In this document: in pieces, positions 4,136-29,641 of the stretch
Layout: every line of letters begins with the position of its first letter
How positions within the stretch are numbered: position 1 is the stretch's first letter
Source: Escherichia coli
Lineage (GTDB): Bacteria > Pseudomonadota > Gammaproteobacteria > Enterobacterales > Enterobacteriaceae
DNA: 64,000 nt
Reading direction: 5' to 3' (one strand)
Assembly: GCF_002854065.1 (NCBI RefSeq)
Contig: NZ_CP024152.1
Program-made: the position numbers and the translations under genes
Notes under the pieces: generated by a model
Databases searched by the model: none
What the model was told of the DNA's origin: nothing
Seen by the model: the letters and a program-made list of their open reading frames with translations, nothing else

Positions 4136-4529
4136 AGGATATTTGAATTTACATAAATTCTGATATACTCAGTAAGATACAAGAGTGTACGGGCACATGT
4201 GCCTGTCTGAATTGCAGGTCATCCGGACGAGGGCCGGGAACTGTTTCAGGGACAAGCGCCGGTACGTTCGATTCATAAATCGTCGAGTCATCCATCATGG
4301 ATCGATTCGGCGCGGAGCGTTAAAGATTACGCTCATATTCGTTTTATGTCTGACGACACATCAACCAGCCAGTATCAGGAATAATCACCTTCAGTAAACT
4401 ATGAGGCTATTTACCTGGCCACACTGGCATTTATTTCCGGTAACGCAAGTATAGCCGGAAACAAACATCATCCTGTCTGTACCGGAGCACCGGTATATCC
4501 CATTCTGATTTAACTGCTCAGGAATTATT

Positions 4530-4988
4530 ATGAACCGTATTATACCTGCGGGGTGTCTTGCCGCCCTTTTTCTGGCTGGCTGCAACTCCCCTTCTCAGCA
4601 TACTCCTGTTCCGCGTAACTACGGTGCTGCCTCTGATGTGGCGGTTACCCGGCACACTCAGTACACATTATGGGACAAAGGTGTGTTTTCCGGCCAACTT
4701 CCGGTTTCAACGGGGTCTCATCTTCTGACAGCTAACAGCGATCGCCTTTCCTTTGACTGGGAAGGTGATGCAATTGAATTACTGAACGAACTGGCCAGAG
4801 TCAGGGGGATGCAGTTTAACTACAATGGTGTCCGCCTGCCGTTACCAGTCAACCTTCACGTCCGGGATATGACGTTTTCCAATACGTTGAGACTTATTGA
4901 AGCCCAGACAGCCTGGAGAGCAACAATCCATCAATATCCGGGCTTGTTACAGGTCAGCTTCATGCAGCCGGAGAACCGGAAAAAATGA
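4530..4988 (+). CDS. traH: TraH lipoprotein (DotD-like), 152 aa
   Basis: Lipobox LAGC after a hydrophobic N-terminus; RBS present; gene order matches R64. Confidence 0.65.
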   Translation: MNRIIPAGCLAALFLAGCNSPSQHTPVPRNYGAASDVAVTRHTQYTLWDKGVFSGQLPVSTGSHLLTANSDRLSFDWEGDAIELLNELARVRGMQFNYNGVRLPLPVNLHVRDMTFSNTLRLIEAQTAWRATIHQYPGLLQVSFMQPENRKK

Positions 4989-23277: not shown

Positions 23278-25515
23278 ATGTCGCCATCCCCCTTAATTAA
23301 ATCCTGTGTGGCCTTTGCCCATACGCAATTCTATTCCGGAGTTACTGTGAAAATTTTACTTCGCGCACTCTGTGCAGGCCTTGCTATATCCTCACTGCCG
23401 GCAATGGCTTCAGTGACCTATCAGGATATTGTGTCTGCCGCCACCAATCCTGACGATCTGTCCCGCCAGGCGCTGGTCACGATATTCGGTGATGTGGTCA
23501 CCAATCCACTGTCAACCAGCGACCCCACCCTGATCGGAAGCATGTTCTGGGTGTTCAACAATATCATTGCCGTACTTGCTATCGTCTGGTGTATCTTCAT
23601 TAGTATCCGCCATGTTGTGCGTTCGGGGCATCAGGGACAGGTATTCAGCGTCGGGCGCGATATTGTCGGCATACTGAGTTTCGTCGCAGGTTTTCTGATG
23701 ATCGTTCCTACCGGAAATGGCTGGAGTCTCGCTCAGCTCATTATGTTATGGGGCGCATCGATAATGGGGGTTGGGTCCGCCAATGTGATGGTGCAAGTTG
23801 CCGCTGATAATATCGCAAATGGTTATTCAATGACTGTACAGCCAGTTCAGGCATCCACACGAACAGCAGCGCGTGGCATTTTTGAAATGGAACTGTGTAA
23901 GTATGCGGTTAACGCAGGGCTAAATGATTTTAATCAGACGGCCAAATCCTCGACTTCACTGATGACAGAATCAGCTAAAACCGCCAGTGGTAATTACACT
24001 GTCACAGTATCCAATGGCAGCGGTATCTGTGGTACTGCCAGCCTGTCAGTAGAAGGGAACGGAACAACAGATCAGTCGACGATTGGAAAATTCTTTAATC
24101 CCTTCAGTAAAAACGAATACAGCGGTGTTATCTCAGCACAACGTGCAGCCATGGATAATATGATTAGCGACATGGACAACGCTGCCAGTGAGTTTGTGAC
24201 AACATTTCTGGAAAAAAGAAATTCTGGCAACGGAACACTGCCGGATATCGAGACACGAATTCAGAAAGCAGCCGACGAATACGAACGTGCTGTGCAAAAA
24301 TCGCTACCCACTGATAACGGAGAGCAATCCAGAAAAGAGGCTCTTAAATCTTATCTCACAACCTACGGGTGGGTAACGCTTGGCGCGTGGTATCAGACCT
24401 TTGCGACAGCTAACCAACGTCTGGCAGAGCTGGCTGACAGAGCTCCAGCTGTAACCTCAATGTCATCACTGGGAGAAGTTGGTGATACTGACTTATTCAG
24501 TGCAGTCATGAGTGCCTACAAGACTCAATTACAGAACACCACCTATACACCACCTCTGGGCACTGTTACATCAGCCAATGAGCAACGAATGGCCAATGCG
24601 CAAGATCCTAAGTCTGCCTTATCTGAAATGATGAGCTTCTTTGTCTATCGAACCAACTGGATAGCAACAGAGATAAGTGGCACAGGAACAACAAGCGATC
24701 AGGTCAATCCATTGATAAAGATGAAAAATATTGGTGATTATACATTAGGAACAACAGAGATTCTCTGGAGTGGATATACAACAGTTAGAGTTCTCGCGAC
24801 AGTAGGTGATAACTCTATTTTCGGAAAGGTTGCCAATTTATTCTCTGGATTACCTAAAGGATTAGTTGCTCTGCTGGATGCTGCAGCTCCCCCAATATAT
24901 TTCTTGTTGTTCCTGTTGTTTTGTGCGGGTTTTTCCTTATCAATTTACCTACCATTTATACCATTCATTTTCTGGATGACAGGCATTGGGAACTGGATAG
25001 TCAGTGTATTAATAGGATGTACCGCCGGACCTCTGTGGGCTGCAACACATCTCGGAACATCAGAAGACAGAGGAAGTCGGGCAGCCTACGGTTATATATA
25101 CTTAATTGATAGTATGATAAGGCCGCCCATCATGGTCTTTGGTTTTTTCTTTGCTTCTGTTGCCATCATCGCCGTAGGCACAATACTGAATGCATTATTT
25201 GGCGCTGCCCTGGTTAACGTACAGTTCAATTCGCTGACCGGTATTTTCAGTCTTGCTGGTTTCTTGCTGATATACGCCAGAATTTGTACAACCACTGTGG
25301 CTGCCATATTTGCCCTTCAGGCCTACCTACCTGATCATGTTATTAATTTCCTTGGTGGGCGTGAGGGAGCCAACACTCTTGGCAGCATGGCAAATTCTGT
25401 TAAAGAAATATTTATTGGAGGAAGTCGCAATATCCGACATACTCCTGGAATGAAAACAGATCGTCTTAAAAATAATACAAATGGAAGTGACGACAAGGAC
25501 GGAATAAAAGGATAA
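23278..25515 (+). CDS. traY: TraY polytopic inner-membrane protein (DotA-like), 745 aa
   Basis: Large ORF with many TM segments directly upstream of excA; exact start uncertain. Confidence 0.7.
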   Translation: MSPSPLIKSCVAFAHTQFYSGVTVKILLRALCAGLAISSLPAMASVTYQDIVSAATNPDDLSRQALVTIFGDVVTNPLSTSDPTLIGSMFWVFNNIIAVLAIVWCIFISIRHVVRSGHQGQVFSVGRDIVGILSFVAGFLMIVPTGNGWSLAQLIMLWGASIMGVGSANVMVQVAADNIANGYSMTVQPVQASTRTAARGIFEMELCKYAVNAGLNDFNQTAKSSTSLMTESAKTASGNYTVTVSNGSGICGTASLSVEGNGTTDQSTIGKFFNPFSKNEYSGVISAQRAAMDNMISDMDNAASEFVTTFLEKRNSGNGTLPDIETRIQKAADEYERAVQKSLPTDNGEQSRKEALKSYLTTYGWVTLGAWYQTFATANQRLAELADRAPAVTSMSSLGEVGDTDLFSAVMSAYKTQLQNTTYTPPLGTVTSANEQRMANAQDPKSALSEMMSFFVYRTNWIATEISGTGTTSDQVNPLIKMKNIGDYTLGTTEILWSGYTTVRVLATVGDNSIFGKVANLFSGLPKGLVALLDAAAPPIYFLLFLLFCAGFSLSIYLPFIPFIFWMTGIGNWIVSVLIGCTAGPLWAATHLGTSEDRGSRAAYGYIYLIDSMIRPPIMVFGFFFASVAIIAVGTILNALFGAALVNVQFNSLTGIFSLAGFLLIYARICTTTVAAIFALQAYLPDHVINFLGGREGANTLGSMANSVKEIFIGGSRNIRHTPGMKTDRLKNNTNGSDDKDGIKG

Positions 25516-25579: not shown

Positions 25580-26242
25580 ATGAAAGCTAAAAAAGAGACA
25601 CCTGACAGATTTCCAACTTGGTGGTTGTTATATTATGTATTAAGGAAGGCTTACTTCTTTTTAGGAATACCTTTCTTTTTATTTTGCGCACTGACATCTA
25701 CACTGATGTTATTTAGTTCTCGTTATTATGGTGACAACATTGAAGATTATGTTGTCACTTTTGGTAGTTGGTTCTTATTACTTGCACCAGGTATATGGAT
25801 GTATTCACGTGCAAAAACAAGGAGAGAAAAGATAAGAAAAGTTGTACAAACAATAAAAGAGTCAGGCTTCTACTCTCCAGAGAAGGGGTATGAAGGATTA
25901 TCTTTAACTCAGGGAGCTTATTTTGGTATTGACCTTAAAAATGGCACAATGTTGTATGTCCGTATCTATCCAGGCAACATTATGGATGTTATCGGTTTTG
26001 ACATTCATAATTTCACTCGTACTGTAACAGACGACAAAACACTGGAAATTCATACGAAATACATCAATCTGCCAATGGTTCCTATTCCATCATGGTGTAC
26101 TCATCCAGAAACCGCATCAAACACCATGCACGCTATGGCAAGTCGAGGATATGATTACCCTGTCGACTTTCCTCGTCTGATTCAGGAAAAGCGTAAGGAG
26201 TGGGAGCAGATTGCAGGCGTGCCTGTAGCCGAAGTATTTTAA
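25580..26242 (+). CDS. excA: Entry exclusion protein ExcA (220 aa)
   Basis: 220-aa AT-rich ORF with N-terminal TM segments immediately after traY; RBS GAGGGGAGG. Confidence 0.7.
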
Positions 26243-26261
26243 GATAAGCTCCCCCCATAAC

Positions 26262-26288
26262 AGCCGGTTCAAATGAGCCGGCTTTTGT
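26262..26288 (+). terminator. Rho-independent terminator after excA
   Basis: Hairpin AGCCGG...CCGGCT followed by TTTT. Confidence 0.5.
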
Positions 26289-26313
26289 TCATTACAACAG
26301 ATAACTTATGCCG

Positions 26314-26523
26314 TTACCGATAAATTCGACCAAGTGCTTTAATCGCAGCAATTTTTATTTCCATATCATCACTTTGACTCAATCTCTCTAATTCACGAAT
26401 GATGTTATCCGCCTGGCATCGACCTTCACCTAATGCATAGATCGCAGCAAGCGTAATGTCTTTTGATTTACTCTTCATCATTTCAAACAAGAAAGTATTA
26501 GCTATCGCAGGAGGCATGCTCAT
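26314..26523 (-). CDS. Small hypothetical protein with HEAT-like repeat signature (about 69 aa)
   Basis: Minus-strand ORF with AGGA RBS; repeated AA(I)xALG motifs; AT-rich context. Possibly a gene remnant. Confidence 0.3.
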   Translation of the reverse strand: MSMPPAIANTFLFEMMKSKSKDITLAAIYALGEGRCQADNIIRELERLSQSDDMEIKIAAIKALGRIYR

Positions 26524-26854
26524 AATCAATCCTCTTCATGAAATAAACAATGGCACTCACTTACAAACAGGAGTCCACTATCGCAAGCGACTCAACTTAG
26601 TAATATCTCTCAATTTGAATGAAAAAACCAGATGGCATGTGACAGGGAACCGTCCGCATGATGTCCGTGACCATTTAACCCCATAAACTGATAAAAAATG
26701 AATACCGGTATCTCAATGCGAAGAAATAATCTCCGTAGAATCCCCCATGAGAAAAATATCATATGGGAGAAAATCGCAATTATCACAGCCAGCGCATTCA
26801 TTATTTTCGCTGTCTTCTGGCATTAATTATTTTCAACACAAAAAGGAAAAAACA

Positions 26855-27031
26855 ATGAATCTGGTAGACGCCTTTGTCAAAAAAGTAATATCCGGTCCAT
26901 ATGAAGAATATGGAAAATGGTGGATAGATGTTGAATACATTTCATGGGGTGTTCCCGGGAAAACAAGACTGATGTTTGAGTCAAAGGAGCAGGCACTGGA
27001 AGTTAAAGAAGGGTACAAATTTTTAACGTGA
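26855..27031 (+). CDS. Hypothetical small protein (58 aa)
   Basis: ATG at 26855 preceded by AAAAGGAAAA; followed by a hairpin at 27047-27077. Confidence 0.35.
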   Translation: MNLVDAFVKKVISGPYEEYGKWWIDVEYISWGVPGKTRLMFESKEQALEVKEGYKFLT

Positions 27032-27095
27032 GATCTCTTTTTGTTAAAGGGCAGGAAGCGGTAACTCCCTGCCCTTAGTTACGTTTCCAGGCTTA

Positions 27096-27203
27096 TCAGT
27101 CGACAAGTTCCCGGATCAGTTCCAGAACAGCAATCAGCGCGTTTGCAACGGCAACTACTGCCCTGAGAACGATGATTAACAGATTAATCATCCGCTTCTC
27201 CAT
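27096..27203 (-). CDS. Candidate type I toxin, DinQ/TisB-like hydrophobic peptide (35 aa, or 31 aa from the ATG at 27191)
   Basis: Manual translation of the minus strand gives MEKRMINLLIIVLRAVVAVANALIAVLELIRELVD; GGAG sits 6 nt before the internal ATG; single predicted TM helix with a charged C-terminus; not in the 60-aa ORF track. Confidence 0.4.
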   Translation of the reverse strand: MEKRMINLLIIVLRAVVAVANALIAVLELIRELVD

Positions 27204-27449
27204 CACTGGAGGAAATCACCGTTGCTTACTCTTACATTGCCTGTCACAACGGCACTTTCAGTGTTAGTTGAAAAGAGACTTCCTCCTGCCAGAGCACTGA
27301 ACACAGCACCACCTGTTTGTTCAGCCAGGACTTAAAATCTTGCATCCATAGTCCCGATGGATATCACGGCAGAAGTGTCGCCAGACAGAGCTAACCTGCG
27401 GATTATAAGGATGGTTGCTATCAAATGAACAGCTCGCTATTATAAGAAC

Positions 27450-27537
27450 GTTAGTTGAAAAGAGATTTCCTCCGGTCAGGGCCACCCACTCTGTAACGGA
27501 ACAGTAAAAAAACCGACCTCACCAGTCGGTTTTTTTA
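27450..27537 (+). ncRNA. Candidate antisense sRNA (putative antitoxin) for the 27096-27203 peptide gene
   Basis: Sigma70-like -35 TTGCTA (27415-27420) and -10 TATTAT (27438-27443); intrinsic terminator hairpin plus T7 at 27511-27536. The transcript carries GTTAGTTGAAAAGAGATTTCCTCC, a near-exact copy of 27262-27285, so it would be complementary to the opposite-strand mRNA leader. Confidence 0.3.
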
Positions 27538-27689
27538 CATCTGTTGTTTCTCAAAATCCGCCCAACATGCCCGTCACACCGGGGAAACTCATGCTCTGAA
27601 TCAGAACCAACCATCTCAACTTTGCCGTCTCCTGAAAAAACTGGCACATTCAGTTCGATAACTACCCATAAATACAGAGAGAAAATCCG

Positions 27690-27941
27690 ATGTCAGAAAA
27701 GTGGAGTAAAGAATTCGACTCTTGCTTTCAGGTGGGGAGCATAGAAGAAATTGCAGATGCTCTCGAGAAACGCAGCGGAAGCGAGGAAAATGCGTTAGCC
27801 ATGCTGGCAATGACAGCCTTCACACTCATGACCCGACGTGGTATCTGCGAAATGCAGAACGTGGCCCCCGATGGCAAAGGCATTCGGCTGGAGCTAATCG
27901 GCTTCAGGGAAAATGAAACAATACCGGATACGCTTCATTGA
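27690..27941 (+). CDS. Hypothetical protein (83 aa)
   Basis: ORF with a weak RBS; ends just before the bidirectional terminator at 27981-28003. Confidence 0.35.
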   Translation: MSEKWSKEFDSCFQVGSIEEIADALEKRSGSEENALAMLAMTAFTLMTRRGICEMQNVAPDGKGIRLELIGFRENETIPDTLH

Positions 27942-27980
27942 AGAAGAAAGGGCGCAATGAGGTCAGCCTTCGCAACAAAG

Positions 27981-28003
27981 CGGCGGCAGAAAACCTGCCG
28001 CCG
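27981..28003. terminator. Bidirectional hairpin terminator shared by pndA and the 27690-27941 gene
   Basis: CGGCGGCAG-AAAAC-CTGCCGCCG perfect stem with T-rich flanks on both strands. Confidence 0.55.
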
Positions 28004-28012
28004 TGTTGCCCG

Positions 28013-28165
28013 TTAACGTTTAACTTCGTAGGCTAACGTTGCCACAAGCACTGTGTTTCCCTGCTGGAGCCGGAGTCCGCAAAGCGAATCCCTCACCATC
28101 CAGACAAAACACAGAATCGTCACACAGATGACGATTAACATCATTAAAAACGTTCGCTGTGGCAT
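28013..28165 (-). CDS. pndA: PndA, Hok-family type I toxin (50 aa)
   Basis: Manual translation: MPQRTFLMMLIVICVTILCFVWMVRDSLCGLRLQQGNTVLVATLAYEVKR, with the Hok-family pattern of a TM helix followed by SLC and AYE. Below the ORF-track size cutoff. Confidence 0.8.
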   Translation of the reverse strand: MPQRTFLMMLIVICVTILCFVWMVRDSLCGLRLQQGNTVLVATLAYEVKR

Positions 28166-28223
28166 CATAGCCCCTCCATTGCCTTACGGCGGTTATCGGG
28201 CTACTATAATGTTGTCTAGGCAT
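28020..28223 (-). CDS. pndC: PndC, Mok-like overlapping reading frame enabling pndA translation
   Basis: Overlapping frame (ORF 28020-28358) with an ATG at 28223; hok/mok/sok architecture. Confidence 0.5.
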   Translation of the reverse strand: MPRQHYSSPITAVRQWRGYDATANVFNDVNRHLCDDSVFCLDGEGFALRTPAPAGKHSACGNVSLRS

Positions 28224-28280
28224 TACAGTAGAGCCCTTGGTTGATTGATAAAAAAATCTCCAGGGGCTTTCTGCTGTATA
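28217..28280 (+). ncRNA. pndB: PndB, Sok-like antisense RNA (approximate)
   Basis: Plus-strand -10 TATAAT at 28205-28210; the transcript would be antisense to the pndC start region; imperfect hairpin plus U-rich tail near 28230-28280. Confidence 0.4.
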
Positions 28281-28437
28281 TGGTTTAGTTAACAAAGAGA
28301 GCCAGTGTTCCACTGAGCAAAACCAGTAGCTATTCATGCTTACAATTATCTTCTCCATATCTGAAATAACTCAAACAGCCCAATAGAAACATATTGTTAC
28401 ATCTAAGATCTTGAAAAGACCTCTTTGAGAAATCAAT

Positions 28438-29424
28438 ATGAGATCACGGTATGTTGATAGGATAATATATATGAAGAAACTATTGATTCGATTAATACCT
28501 GATGCAATATATGAGGCTCTGGAAAAGACAGCTCTGCATTCTGAACGCTCCCTGGAAGCACAGGCCAGATATATCCTTAGTTGCTCCGTAGATAATGAAA
28601 AACAATTAACTGGTGGTGAACGCTATCAAAGAGAAATAACCGCGCGTCTTAATCAAGCGTTATCAGAAGCTAATGAGGTCATAACAGCCATTAATCTTGT
28701 TCCCGCAAGAATTGCAGAACAATTAGGCCATCATGACGCCATAGAATCCGAAAATTGGTTCACCGGAAATGCTGTTCCTAGCTTTACAGAGCTTGACGAA
28801 TTAAGCGATATCTTTGGATGCTCTCCAGATTGGTTAAAGTTTGGCGAAAATGTACCTTATCCAAAGAGTTCTAAAGGAAGGATAAACTGGAATCGTGGCG
28901 GAGAAAAAGATATCGATGCACTTTTAGAGCCTGACAACAAAGGTCGTAAAGTCTCATCTATTCATATTTTCAGGGTAAATGAATCTGGCAATATACTAAT
29001 ACTGAGAGAATTTGAAAACAGCATAACTACAGATTTTTTCTCAACAAACCTTTACTTATCAGACAAAGAAAAAATAGGACAGGGCGGATTCCACGACCTG
29101 GTCGATTTCCTTGTAATTTTACAATCCCTTTATTTAAAATATATAAATAGCAATCTGTTAGTGAAAAGCTATAACATTAGCCAATATGTACTGGATTCCT
29201 GTTATAAGAGCGGAGAAAAGCACCCCATAACTATATGTAGTGCAGGTGAGACAAGTACCTGGTGGGAAGACATATGGCATGAAGACATGATAGCTCAATC
29301 GAGGAATAATGAGTCCTACTTCTGGGATGGTGACAAACCTCTTATTGATAGCCTTCATAAAGAACTTCAAAAAAATAACAGATTAAAGCCAAACAGTGAG
29401 TTAGATATGCCACTAATTGGTTAA
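28438..29424 (+). CDS. Low-GC hypothetical protein with N-terminal ribbon-helix-helix-like region, paralogous to TraE (328 aa)
   Basis: About 38% GC; Arc/MetJ-like N-terminus (LIPDAIYEALEKTALHSERSLEAQARYIL); shares the SPDWLKFGENVPYP motif with TraE (NPDWLNGHENYPIA). Confidence 0.5.
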   Translation: MRSRYVDRIIYMKKLLIRLIPDAIYEALEKTALHSERSLEAQARYILSCSVDNEKQLTGGERYQREITARLNQALSEANEVITAINLVPARIAEQLGHHDAIESENWFTGNAVPSFTELDELSDIFGCSPDWLKFGENVPYPKSSKGRINWNRGGEKDIDALLEPDNKGRKVSSIHIFRVNESGNILILREFENSITTDFFSTNLYLSDKEKIGQGGFHDLVDFLVILQSLYLKYINSNLLVKSYNISQYVLDSCYKSGEKHPITICSAGETSTWWEDIWHEDMIAQSRNNESYFWDGDKPLIDSLHKELQKNNRLKPNSELDMPLIG

Positions 29425-29641
29425 ACACCAATTAAAGATTATCTAGCTAAAACAACATCGTACACGCATACTGCAAAGCCCTTGGTGAGTTAATAGAAGA
29501 ATTACTAAGGGCTTATAAAAAATATATACCCCCACATTGGTGACACATTAAAATATTTTTTGTTGATGTGTTACCAGCCTGACCCAAAAACAATTTTTAA
29601 TCTTTCCGTTCGATTTAAATTCCAGAAATGGAGACTTTGTC

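Follow-up and report, generated by a model that had tools for sequence, protein, structure and literature searches.

Three small genes interleaved with two toxin-antitoxin modules in the excA-pnd interval of an IncI1-type plasmid

Results

The interval between excA and pnd

The analysed window, a 64,000-nucleotide stretch of an IncI1-type plasmid from Escherichia coli (contig NZ_CP024152.1), contains a 1.77-kb interval between excA and pnd in which three small genes are interleaved with two toxin-antitoxin modules (Table 1). Many sequenced IncI1/I-gamma plasmids match the stretch at 100% identity, and the 69-, 58-, and 83-aa ORFs named in the original prediction coincide exactly in their coordinates with RefSeq CDSs, as given by the gene calls in the identical plasmids. 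The flanks are likewise those predicted, with the exclusion gene excA matching the NCBIfam model surf_exc_IncI1 on the left and the Hok-family toxin gene pndA, accompanied by a sok match, on the right. The interval had been described as AT-rich, which holds on average (44.1% GC vs. 51.2% for the whole window), but the clearly AT-rich part is limited to the left half (26243-27100, 39.6% GC), while the right half reaches 48.4% and the 83-aa ORF 49.6%. Two mini-ORFs between the HEAT and 58-aa genes, of 42 aa (26698-26826) and 31 aa (26763-26858), lack RefSeq annotation and differ in length between plasmids, and were rejected as genes. The 31-aa ORF is the counterpart of 'Hp28' in pESBL.

Table 1 Features of the excA-pnd interval and its borders (positions in the window).
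Feature	Coordinates	Strand	Evidence or remark
excA	25580-26242		Left border of the interval; NCBIfam surf_exc_IncI1, 296 bits
Hairpin, excA(+)/HEAT(-), convergent	26262-26283	.	excA intrinsic terminator: 9-bp stem then TTTTGTT
HEAT repeat domain-containing protein, WP_000062602	26314-26523	-	69 aa; RefSeq CDS
Divergent intergenic region, HEAT gene/58-aa gene	26524-26854	.	AT-rich, 37.8% GC
58-aa protein, WP_001054900	26855-27031	+	RefSeq CDS; phage family phrog_8110
Hairpin, 58-aa gene(+)/dqlB(-), convergent	27047-27076	.	More stable as minus-strand RNA
dqlB, DinQ-like type I membrane toxin	27096-27206	-	RefSeq annotation dqlB; RefSeq start 27191, 31 aa
AgrB-complementary site in dqlB 5′ UTR	27263-27295	-	Direct repeat (33 nt, 88% identical) of the 5′ part of AgrB when read on the plus strand
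AgrB-like antitoxin sRNA	27451-27538	+	Rfam RF02891, 55.3 bits vs. gathering score 40, full length
83-aa protein, WP_001291964	27690-27941	+	RefSeq CDS; small Enterobacterales-only family
GC-rich hairpin, 83-aa gene(+)/pnd mRNA 3′ end(-)	27981-28003	.	Minus-strand terminator score
pndA, Hok-family toxin	28013-28168	-	HOK_GEF, E 1.4e-12; right border of the interval
sok	28163-28380		Rfam match, 74.9 bits, at pndA

Toxin-antitoxin modules and shared hairpins

The toxin-antitoxin candidate that had been set apart from the three ORFs is dqlB with AgrB. The toxin scores 66.3 bits against NCBIfam DinQ_rel (cutoff 35), and the AgrB-like sRNA has its own intrinsic terminator (27504-27538); with a hydrophobic toxin and a complementary AgrB sRNA, the pair belongs, by these sequence features, to the DinQ-like type I systems. 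As in known dinQ/agrB and dqlB/agrB loci, the part of the interval outside the ORFs consists of a canonical dqlB toxin, its AgrB sRNA, and a 5′ UTR site complementary to that sRNA, and the complementarity suggests that the dqlB 5′ UTR pairs with AgrB here. On pOXA-48, dqlB/agrB has been validated as an addiction module, with its pairing mechanism and toxicity demonstrated (PMC12365149). The right border likewise has the pndA/sok arrangement of a hok/sok system. Both dqlB/AgrB and pnd count as type I toxin-antitoxin modules, of the kind that kills plasmid-free segregants. They account for the earlier candidate but not for the three ORFs, which occur independently of them.

Each ORF had also been credited with its own terminator-like hairpin. 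A stable hairpin does lie 3′ of each, but all three are common to a convergent neighbour (excA, dqlB, or pndA) and carry the better terminator signature on the neighbour's strand. Between excA and the HEAT gene, the terminator call is on the plus strand only (z -4.3 vs. -0.8 on the minus strand, which has no U-tract). The hairpin between the 58-aa gene and dqlB reaches -22.4 kcal/mol (z -3.5) on the minus strand compared with -17.6 kcal/mol (z -1.2) on the plus strand, and that between the 83-aa gene and pnd has a z of about -3 to -3.6 on both. Shared in this way, the hairpins may insulate convergent units and prevent antisense read-through into the toxin genes.

Conservation of the ORFs and their cassettes

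ORF length in the interval is at chance level, as many further ORFs of 50-76 aa occur within the same 1.77 kb. The three ORFs stand above this background because they are conserved, with dN/dS of 0.04-0.24 (HEAT gene, 0.07-0.24; 58-aa gene, 0.044; 83-aa gene, 0.13-0.18), substitutions that fall mainly at third positions (5/5 and 2/2 in the comparison with pESBL), and full-length homologs elsewhere that share 36-60% identity and conserved length and termini. Judged by these patterns of substitution, the comparison shows the three to be genuine protein-coding genes under purifying selection. Since the sequence is coding, it is not the invariant non-coding sequence that the original prediction had named as the outcome that would speak against it.

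Each ORF sits on its own cassette of 260-340 bp, made up of the ORF and 50-100 bp upstream, that recurs in unrelated contexts. Window positions 26314-26572 match a Citrobacter prophage locus (75% identity), 26752-27059 a metagenome contig (74.5%), and 27609-27945 an E. coli contig (80%), with no other match in any of these loci; the last ~100 bp of the HEAT/58-aa intergenic region (26752-26854) move with the 58-aa cassette. Pfam scans of every alignment member returned sub-threshold noise only, and searches against PADLOC and anti-defence families gave no significant match, only partial matches of the E 0.03 type to large HEAT-ARM and CARF proteins. Literature searches with the RefSeq protein accessions found no papers.

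Predicted properties of the three proteins

The HEAT gene has a good Shine-Dalgarno sequence (GAGGA, 7 nt upstream of the ATG), and the HEAT-repeat-like nature claimed for its product is borne out by matches to Pfam PF13646 HEAT_2 (29.2 bits, cutoff 27.7) and PF02985 HEAT (24.9, cutoff 23.5). HEAT repeats are tandem helix-turn-helix units of ~31-33 residues, and the sequence is predicted to contain such units: a DNA repeat inside the gene is spaced 99 nt (33 codons), and an alignment with alphaRep proteins (E 4e-6) places two consecutive repeats over residues 12-67. On this evidence, the protein is a complete stand-alone two-repeat protein of the PBS-lyase/alphaRep type. Its homologs are all 68-71 aa in length, including those of Yersinia at 42% identity, and a search of 5.8 billion sequences turned up no longer parent; the earlier suggestion that the ORF is a remnant of a larger gene was therefore rejected. 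Relatives in lambdoid prophages are single reverse-oriented inserts near lysis and terminase genes. A family search with the 145-156-aa gene upstream of these prophage HEAT genes gave no significant match, and no literature was found on HEAT repeats together with prophages and morons. A two-repeat protein of this kind could act as a small protein-binding adaptor or inhibitor.

The 58-aa gene, with the Shine-Dalgarno sequence AAGGA 7 nt upstream of its ATG, encodes a full-length member of PHROG family phrog_8110 (E 1.9e-19, with residues 1-57 aligned to positions 1-58 of the 59-position profile) with phage homologs at 36-59% identity and no Pfam family. Its predicted fold is a five-stranded closed beta-barrel with a short helix between strands 3/4 and 5, an arrangement that would qualify as an OB-fold, although the protein has no sequence similarity to small OB-fold proteins (eS28, IF1A, PAN N-domain, SSB/PriB; 6-17% identity) and, at 58 aa, stands at their lower size limit. 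A barrel of this type would have nucleic acid or an oligomeric ligand as its binding partner. Members of the family are widespread in diverse phages, where they lie among small genes that lack annotation and, in temperate phages, also near integrases. Clustering of its neighbours at 75 IMG/VR loci revealed no cluster in more than 15 loci and no conserved partner gene, and the annotated neighbour clusters are PHROGs of unknown function. On an IncK2 plasmid, the cassette lies downstream of a thermonuclease gene in the order SNase, 58-aa gene, dqlB; a thermonuclease remnant was looked for upstream of the 58-aa gene studied here and was not found.

The 83-aa protein also belongs to no Pfam family. 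Its model, of moderate confidence (pLDDT 74), predicts three helices and a three-stranded sheet and matched no known fold; the protein may act as a small binder of mixed helical/beta structure. The 83-aa cassette is found in about 16% of complete E. coli genomes, nearly always on a plasmid, and also in chromosomal islands. In one genome, a homolog of the 83-aa protein lies directly 3′ of an hha gene, and the 140-aa gene that follows this pair gave only a sub-threshold DUF5338 match.

Comparison with other plasmids of the group

Variability of the ORFs among IncI1 plasmids, for which the original prediction had proposed a comparative alignment, was not what the comparison returned. In the IncI1 prototype R64 (NC_005014 / AP005147), all three recur, and the gene order excA, HEAT, 58-aa, dqlB, 83-aa, pndA and the orientations are unchanged, at 94-99% identity, with the counterparts WP_000062603 (HEAT), WP_001054897 (58-aa), and the identical WP_001291964 (83-aa). 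It differs in having 60 additional bp at window junction 26689/26690 and in lacking the 1.3-kb cassette found just past pndA in the studied plasmid (28281-29591). The lineage of the studied plasmid has in turn lost the pnd promoter and 5′ end of the R64 type. In PLSDB, trbA is present in 1441 records and the 58-aa ORF in 1423 at at least 95% identity, while at at least 90% identity the 83-aa ORF is present in 1396 records and HEAT in 1121; an alternative hha cassette occurs in 310. Among plasmids with a close trbA, about 97-99% have the 58-aa and 83-aa genes; these two are close to fixation in IncI1, and the HEAT gene and the hha cassette alternate.

The hha gene fills the HEAT slot beside excA in pESBL, and the same interval of IncK2 plasmids and pESBL holds other cargo (hha, TacAT-like, extra hok, thermonuclease, and finQ). 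The 83-aa gene is absent from IncK2 plasmids with the same transfer system, and the excA-trbA interval has been termed 'a very variable region' (PMC8004404). The hha of pESBL-type IncI1 plasmids without HEAT has the same gene length (210 bp, 69 aa), and both Hha/YmoA and the HEAT protein are small and all-helical; however, HEAT repeats belong to a different fold class, and the pESBL hha is codirectional with excA whereas the studied HEAT gene is opposite. None of the three proteins matches Pfam PF05321 HHA, and neither HEAT nor the 83-aa protein was accepted as a member of Hha/YmoA. Genuine hha genes, those of L015 and pESBL, match HHA or are annotated hha.

Published TnSeq data from the sister plasmid pESBL cover the 58-aa and 83-aa genes; HEAT falls outside them, pESBL having hha in the slot. 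Hp25, which is identical to the 83-aa protein, was scored as non-essential at 1.00 and for transfer at 0.00, and Hp27, the 58-aa protein, as non-essential at 0.57, for maintenance at 0.42, and for transfer at 0.01 (PMC4288162, Table 2), compared with transfer requirements of 0.84-1.00 for TraY, TraX, and TrbA (PMC4288162). Both protein identities were checked. These data show that the sister plasmid needs neither the 58-aa nor the 83-aa gene for conjugation, and that it does not need the 83-aa gene for maintenance either. The claim that the ORFs are accessory rather than transfer machinery is right because the two genes are unneeded for transfer in pESBL, which places them outside the IncI1 transfer backbone, and recurring cassettes agree with it; the cargo is not, however, variable within IncI1 proper.

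Discussion

We consider it likely that the excA-pnd interval is a normal R64-type maintenance and accessory island inside the IncI1 transfer region, and that the ORF proteins are trans-acting, moron-like modulators. The interval would be a row of five small independently transcribed modules in which convergent pairs share hairpins: excA facing HEAT, the 58-aa gene facing dqlB with its trans-acting AgrB sRNA, and the 83-aa gene facing pndA. The three proteins would then act in trans as modulators and not as parts of the secretion machine. Like phage morons, which the HEAT relatives resemble as single reverse-oriented genes close to lysis and terminase genes in lambdoid prophages, the cassettes consist of an ORF and a short upstream region, are bounded by hairpins, and would be dispensable for the core functions of their carrier. 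They differ in residing on a conjugative plasmid and in sharing their hairpins with neighbouring genes, and while cassette boundaries and hairpins were found, promoter scans of the interval returned no more sites than shuffled sequence. Two points count against this reading. The almost universal presence of the 58-aa and 83-aa genes among IncI1 plasmids suits a backbone-linked role better than free cargo, and the 42% of the Hp27 signal classed as 'essential for maintenance' may point to a maintenance role or a cis-acting DNA role for the 58-aa gene.

An alternative that we judge unlikely is that the three small proteins are counter-defence or phage/plasmid-competition factors, such as anti-restriction-like inhibitors or agents of superinfection or phage exclusion, whose binding targets would be proteins or nucleic acids of the host or of an invader. 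The classic moron positions of the HEAT relatives and the phage distribution of the 58-aa family, including its proximity to integrases, point in this direction. IncI1 plasmids do alter phage sensitivity, but the phage-type conversion was ascribed to ibfA and another gene elsewhere on the plasmid, outside the interval (PMC8004404). The searches of PADLOC and anti-defence families and the 75 viral loci of the 58-aa family, with no match and no conserved partner gene, respectively, also argue against such a role. From IncI1 transfer polarity, we take the interval to be on the trailing side of oriT, outside the leading region, in which plasmid anti-defence genes cluster. It is very improbable that the ORFs are accessory parts or regulators of the adjacent type I modules, the 58-aa gene serving dqlB and the 83-aa gene pndA. 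Each is convergent with the toxin gene and has a 3′ hairpin in common with it, the 58-aa gene and dqlB are co-inherited in an IncK2 plasmid at about 77% identity, and Hp27 insertions were partly classed as maintenance-essential (PMC4288162). Yet dqlB/AgrB functions alone on pOXA-48 and is found in many groups of plasmids that lack the 58-aa gene (PMC12365149), where database matches cover the dqlB part only. Phages carry the 58-aa family without dqlB, the 83-aa cassette occurs without an adjacent hok sequence, IncK2 has hok without the 83-aa gene, and Hp25 is fully dispensable (PMC4288162).

Embedding within the transfer region, together with the prevalence of the 58-aa and 83-aa genes among close-trbA plasmids, would fit components of the transfer or exclusion backbone, for example helpers of ExcA/TraY entry exclusion or of TrbABC. 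This explanation is largely refuted, its probability reduced to a sliver, by the pESBL transfer scores, by the replacement of HEAT with hha in about 310 plasmids, by the IncK2 plasmids that lack the 83-aa gene, and by homologs that phages and chromosomes carry away from any transfer genes. Least credible, with next to no probability, is that the ORFs are chance frames or gene remnants in a non-coding spacer, with the HEAT ORF as a fragment. The proteins are indeed short, two belong to no Pfam family, and the interval holds many other ORFs of similar length, but this is set against strong purifying selection, full-length homologs with conserved termini, structure models predicted with good or moderate confidence, and the uniform length of the HEAT relatives.

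Beyond the moron-like reading, HEAT and Hha, unrelated 69-aa helical proteins in the post-excA slot of nearly all IncI1 plasmids, might be functional alternatives. HEAT, and perhaps the hha-associated 83-aa protein, would then represent a new class of plasmid/prophage modulators acting on host nucleoid or silencing factors or on another host hub protein. In a similar vein, the 58-aa OB-fold protein, which diverse phages share, could be a small inhibitor of a new kind that targets a nuclease or a defence sensor of the host. We regard these proposals as speculative and rather improbable.

As a sequence finding, nothing here is new: annotation exists for the genes, R64 has the same layout, earlier work had called the interval variable, and for two of the genes it had shown that transfer does not need them. 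IncI1 plasmids rank among the major vehicles of ESBL and AmpC resistance genes in E. coli and Salmonella. Functional studies of plasmid fitness, of host modulation, and of the interplay between phages and plasmids have legitimate targets in three small conserved proteins of so common a backbone.

Small genes and toxin-antitoxin modules of the excA-pndA interval

The 1770-bp interval between excA and pndA of this plasmid contains three small ORFs, whose coordinates agree exactly with those of the original prediction. RefSeq annotates them as WP_000062602 (HEAT repeat domain-containing protein, 69 aa), WP_001054900 (hypothetical protein, 58 aa), and WP_001291964 (hypothetical protein, 83 aa), with dqlB among them. 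Gene content and gene order are shared with the IncI1 prototype plasmid R64 (94-99% identity), and megablast recovered the region at 100% identity from numerous sequenced plasmids of the IncI1/I-gamma group in E. coli, Salmonella, Shigella, and Citrobacter. The gap content, already annotated and matching R64, is thus already known, and the R64-type layout is the ancestral, ordinary one. GC content is 44.1% in the gap vs. 51.2% in the whole window; the description of the gap as AT-rich clearly applies to its left half only (39.6%), and the 83-aa ORF has 49.6%. A stable hairpin lies 3′ of each of the three ORFs, always between convergent genes; the proposed terminators are therefore present but shared with the convergent neighbor rather than owned by each ORF.

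Features of the excA-pndA interval and its flanks
Feature	Position	Strand	Description
traY	23278-25515		
excA	25580-26242		
excA terminator hairpin	26262-26283		U-tract on plus strand only
HEAT gene	26314-26523	-	69 aa
HEAT cassette	26314-26713		
58-aa gene	26855-27031	+	
Hairpin between 58-aa gene and dqlB	27047-27076		more stable as minus-strand RNA
83-aa cassette	27609-27945		80% DNA identity to a copy elsewhere
83-aa gene	27690-27941	+	
pnd mRNA hairpin	27981-28003	-	flagged terminator
pndA	28013-28168	-	right border of gap, with sok
1.3-kb cassette	28281-29591		
328-aa ORF	28438-29424	+	
Imperfect 46-nt direct repeat	28224-28269 / 29469-29514		flanks 1.3-kb cassette

Coding status and relatives of the small proteins

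Length is no proof that these ORFs are genes rather than spurious, because the gap has many other ORFs of 50-76 aa. Conservation decides the matter: given the dN/dS values against diverged copies and the enrichment of substitutions at codon third positions (5/5 in the 58-aa ORF and 2/2 in the 83-aa ORF relative to the IncI1 plasmid pESBL), the three ORFs originally noticed are evidently real genes. An acceptable Shine-Dalgarno sequence can be read at all three.

Conservation, distribution, and pESBL TnSeq values (PMC4288162 Table 2); PLSDB counts are from one search per sequence, and the sets were never intersected
Gene	dN/dS	PLSDB records	By identity	Non-essential	Maintenance	Transfer
HEAT	0.07-0.24	1214	1121 at least 90%			
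hha cassette, same slot (pESBL type)		310	308 at least 90%	0.40	0.59	0.02
58-aa (Hp27)	0.044	1801	1423 at least 95%; 378 at 60-80%	0.57	0.42	0.01
83-aa (Hp25, identical protein)	0.13-0.18	1396	all at least 90%	1.00	0.00	0.00
trbA (backbone control)		2036	1441 at least 95%			

The 69-aa protein exceeds both the Pfam HEAT_2 and HEAT thresholds and can be aligned with two adjacent repeats in designed alphaRep proteins, and its gene contains an internal repeat spaced by 33 codons. All relatives found in a search of 5.8 billion sequences, including those 42% identical in Yersinia, are 68-71 aa. HEAT is a miniature protein complete in itself and not, as had been suggested, a remnant of a larger gene. 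Chromosomal copies, 74% identical in Citrobacter koseri, are single-gene, reverse-oriented inserts in lambdoid prophages, located between the lysis cassette and terminase genes in Citrobacter and between both terminase genes in Yersinia. These are classic positions of morons, independently transcribed accessory genes inserted between conserved phage genes. Plasmid and prophage loci have in common only the ORF and ~50 bp upstream.

The 58-aa protein has a full-length match to phrog_8110 (E 1.9e-19). Relatives of 56-63 aa, always with the N-terminus MN(L/I/V)(V/L/I)(D/E), occur in Aeromonas, Pseudomonas, crAss-like, and Bacteroides phages and on 75 IMG/VR contigs, with no conserved neighbor across the viral loci examined. 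In IncK2 plasmid p1095_scFOS (2485-3279) and a metagenome contig (359-1136), the gene lies directly downstream of a secreted-type SNase-family thermonuclease gene encoding a signal-peptide-like N-terminus, which suggests an ancestral two-gene unit; a search beside the 58-aa gene of this plasmid found no thermonuclease remnant.

The 83-aa family is restricted to Enterobacterales. An exhaustive search returned only three distant relatives (46-60% identity), two of 83-85 aa and one N-terminally short call of 64 aa, all ending in His. The 46%-identical homolog directly follows hha and precedes a 140-aa gene of no assigned function (contig positions 5680-6683), while a 74%-identical copy lies at the distal end of a CdiA orphan toxin/immunity array (contact-dependent inhibition), beside IS3 elements. 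The predicted structure comprises three helices and a three-stranded sheet, and this moderate-confidence model (pLDDT 74) yielded no fold match.

Distribution across the I-complex and interpretation

Among IncI1/I-gamma plasmids in the strict sense, the genes for the 58-aa and 83-aa proteins are close to fixation. A single slot seems to be taken by either HEAT or hha, the separate, non-intersected searches giving 1121 + 308 against approximately 1441 trbA records. Comparison with other IncI1 plasmids, proposed for finding variable ORFs, points to alternation in this slot and near-fixation of the other two genes. The HEAT cassette and the pESBL hha cassette (4453-4754) both follow directly after excA and carry 210-bp genes in opposite orientation. 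More broadly in the I-complex, the contents of the interval change from plasmid to plasmid: an IncK2 plasmid carries a DUF1778/GNAT pair, hok, a DNA-binding protein, a thermonuclease, the 58-aa gene, and dqlB, and another carries HEAT and two hok genes. The trbA-traY segment has been called "a very variable region" (PMC8004404).

Lying within the transfer region, the small genes might be parts of the transfer backbone. The pESBL transfer values of the 58-aa and 83-aa genes and of Hha, the occupant of the HEAT slot there, are 0.00-0.02 vs. 0.84-1.00 for TraY, TraX, and TrbA (PMC4288162), and they are therefore not transfer machinery. Further, less likely rivals cast them as counter-defence factors or as toxin-antitoxin accessories. 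The evidence best fits a conserved island for maintenance and accessory functions within the transfer region. The accessory label proposed earlier is half correct. Dispensability, modularity, and occurrence on phages agree with it; the genes are also near-fixed in IncI1, and HEAT is intact. The island would combine two type I addiction modules with three moron-like small-protein cassettes of independent origins. Going by fold class only, HEAT could be a protein-binding mini-adaptor, the 58-aa protein an OB-fold binder of ligand or nucleic acid, and the 83-aa protein an orphan alpha/beta protein.

Between the HEAT and 58-aa genes, R64 and several other IncI1 plasmids have 60 extra bp at 26689/26690, where identity to R64 changes from 94% (left) to 99% (right), which suggests a recombination junction.

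Toxin-antitoxin modules

The gap also encodes dqlB (NCBIfam, 66 bits) and the AgrB sRNA (Rfam, 55 bits), and the dqlB 5′ UTR repeats a 33-nt stretch of AgrB; by these matches the pair constitutes a predicted DinQ-like type I toxin-antitoxin module. A recent study confirmed on pOXA-48 that this family is an addiction module and reports its presence in 67% of IncI1 plasmids (PMC12365149). Divergence from pESBL is centered on the dqlB 5′ UTR (27207-27450, 37%) and AgrB (13.6%) vs. 1-3% in flanking genes. The segment 27207-27538 looks as if the toxin-antitoxin pairing region had been exchanged for another allele, which might avoid cross-talk between co-resident plasmids. In I-gamma/K1 plasmid NZ_CP150017 (2360-3052), window 27043-27362, with the dqlB toxin gene, has no counterpart; two copies of an AgrB-family sRNA and one additional partial copy of sok are retained as orphan antitoxin RNAs.

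Between pndA and trbA, a 1.3-kb cassette found in 103 PLSDB plasmids stands in for 126 bp of R64, in a slot occupied by finQ in pESBL and empty in R64. Its 328-aa ORF has an N-terminal FitA-like ribbon-helix-helix domain and a weak HTH match. In hok-family systems, an mRNA 5′ element pairs with the mRNA 3′ end. The R64 segment replaced here (window 28281-28380, minus strand) includes the pnd promoter and first ~40 nt of pnd mRNA, which are this 5′ element; the 3′ partner sequence is unchanged in this plasmid. Rfam sok scores 74.9 bits in the window, with an 84-nt insertion, vs. 131.7 bits in R64 and pESBL. In this lineage of the plasmid, pnd may be regulated differently, or its very activity may have changed.
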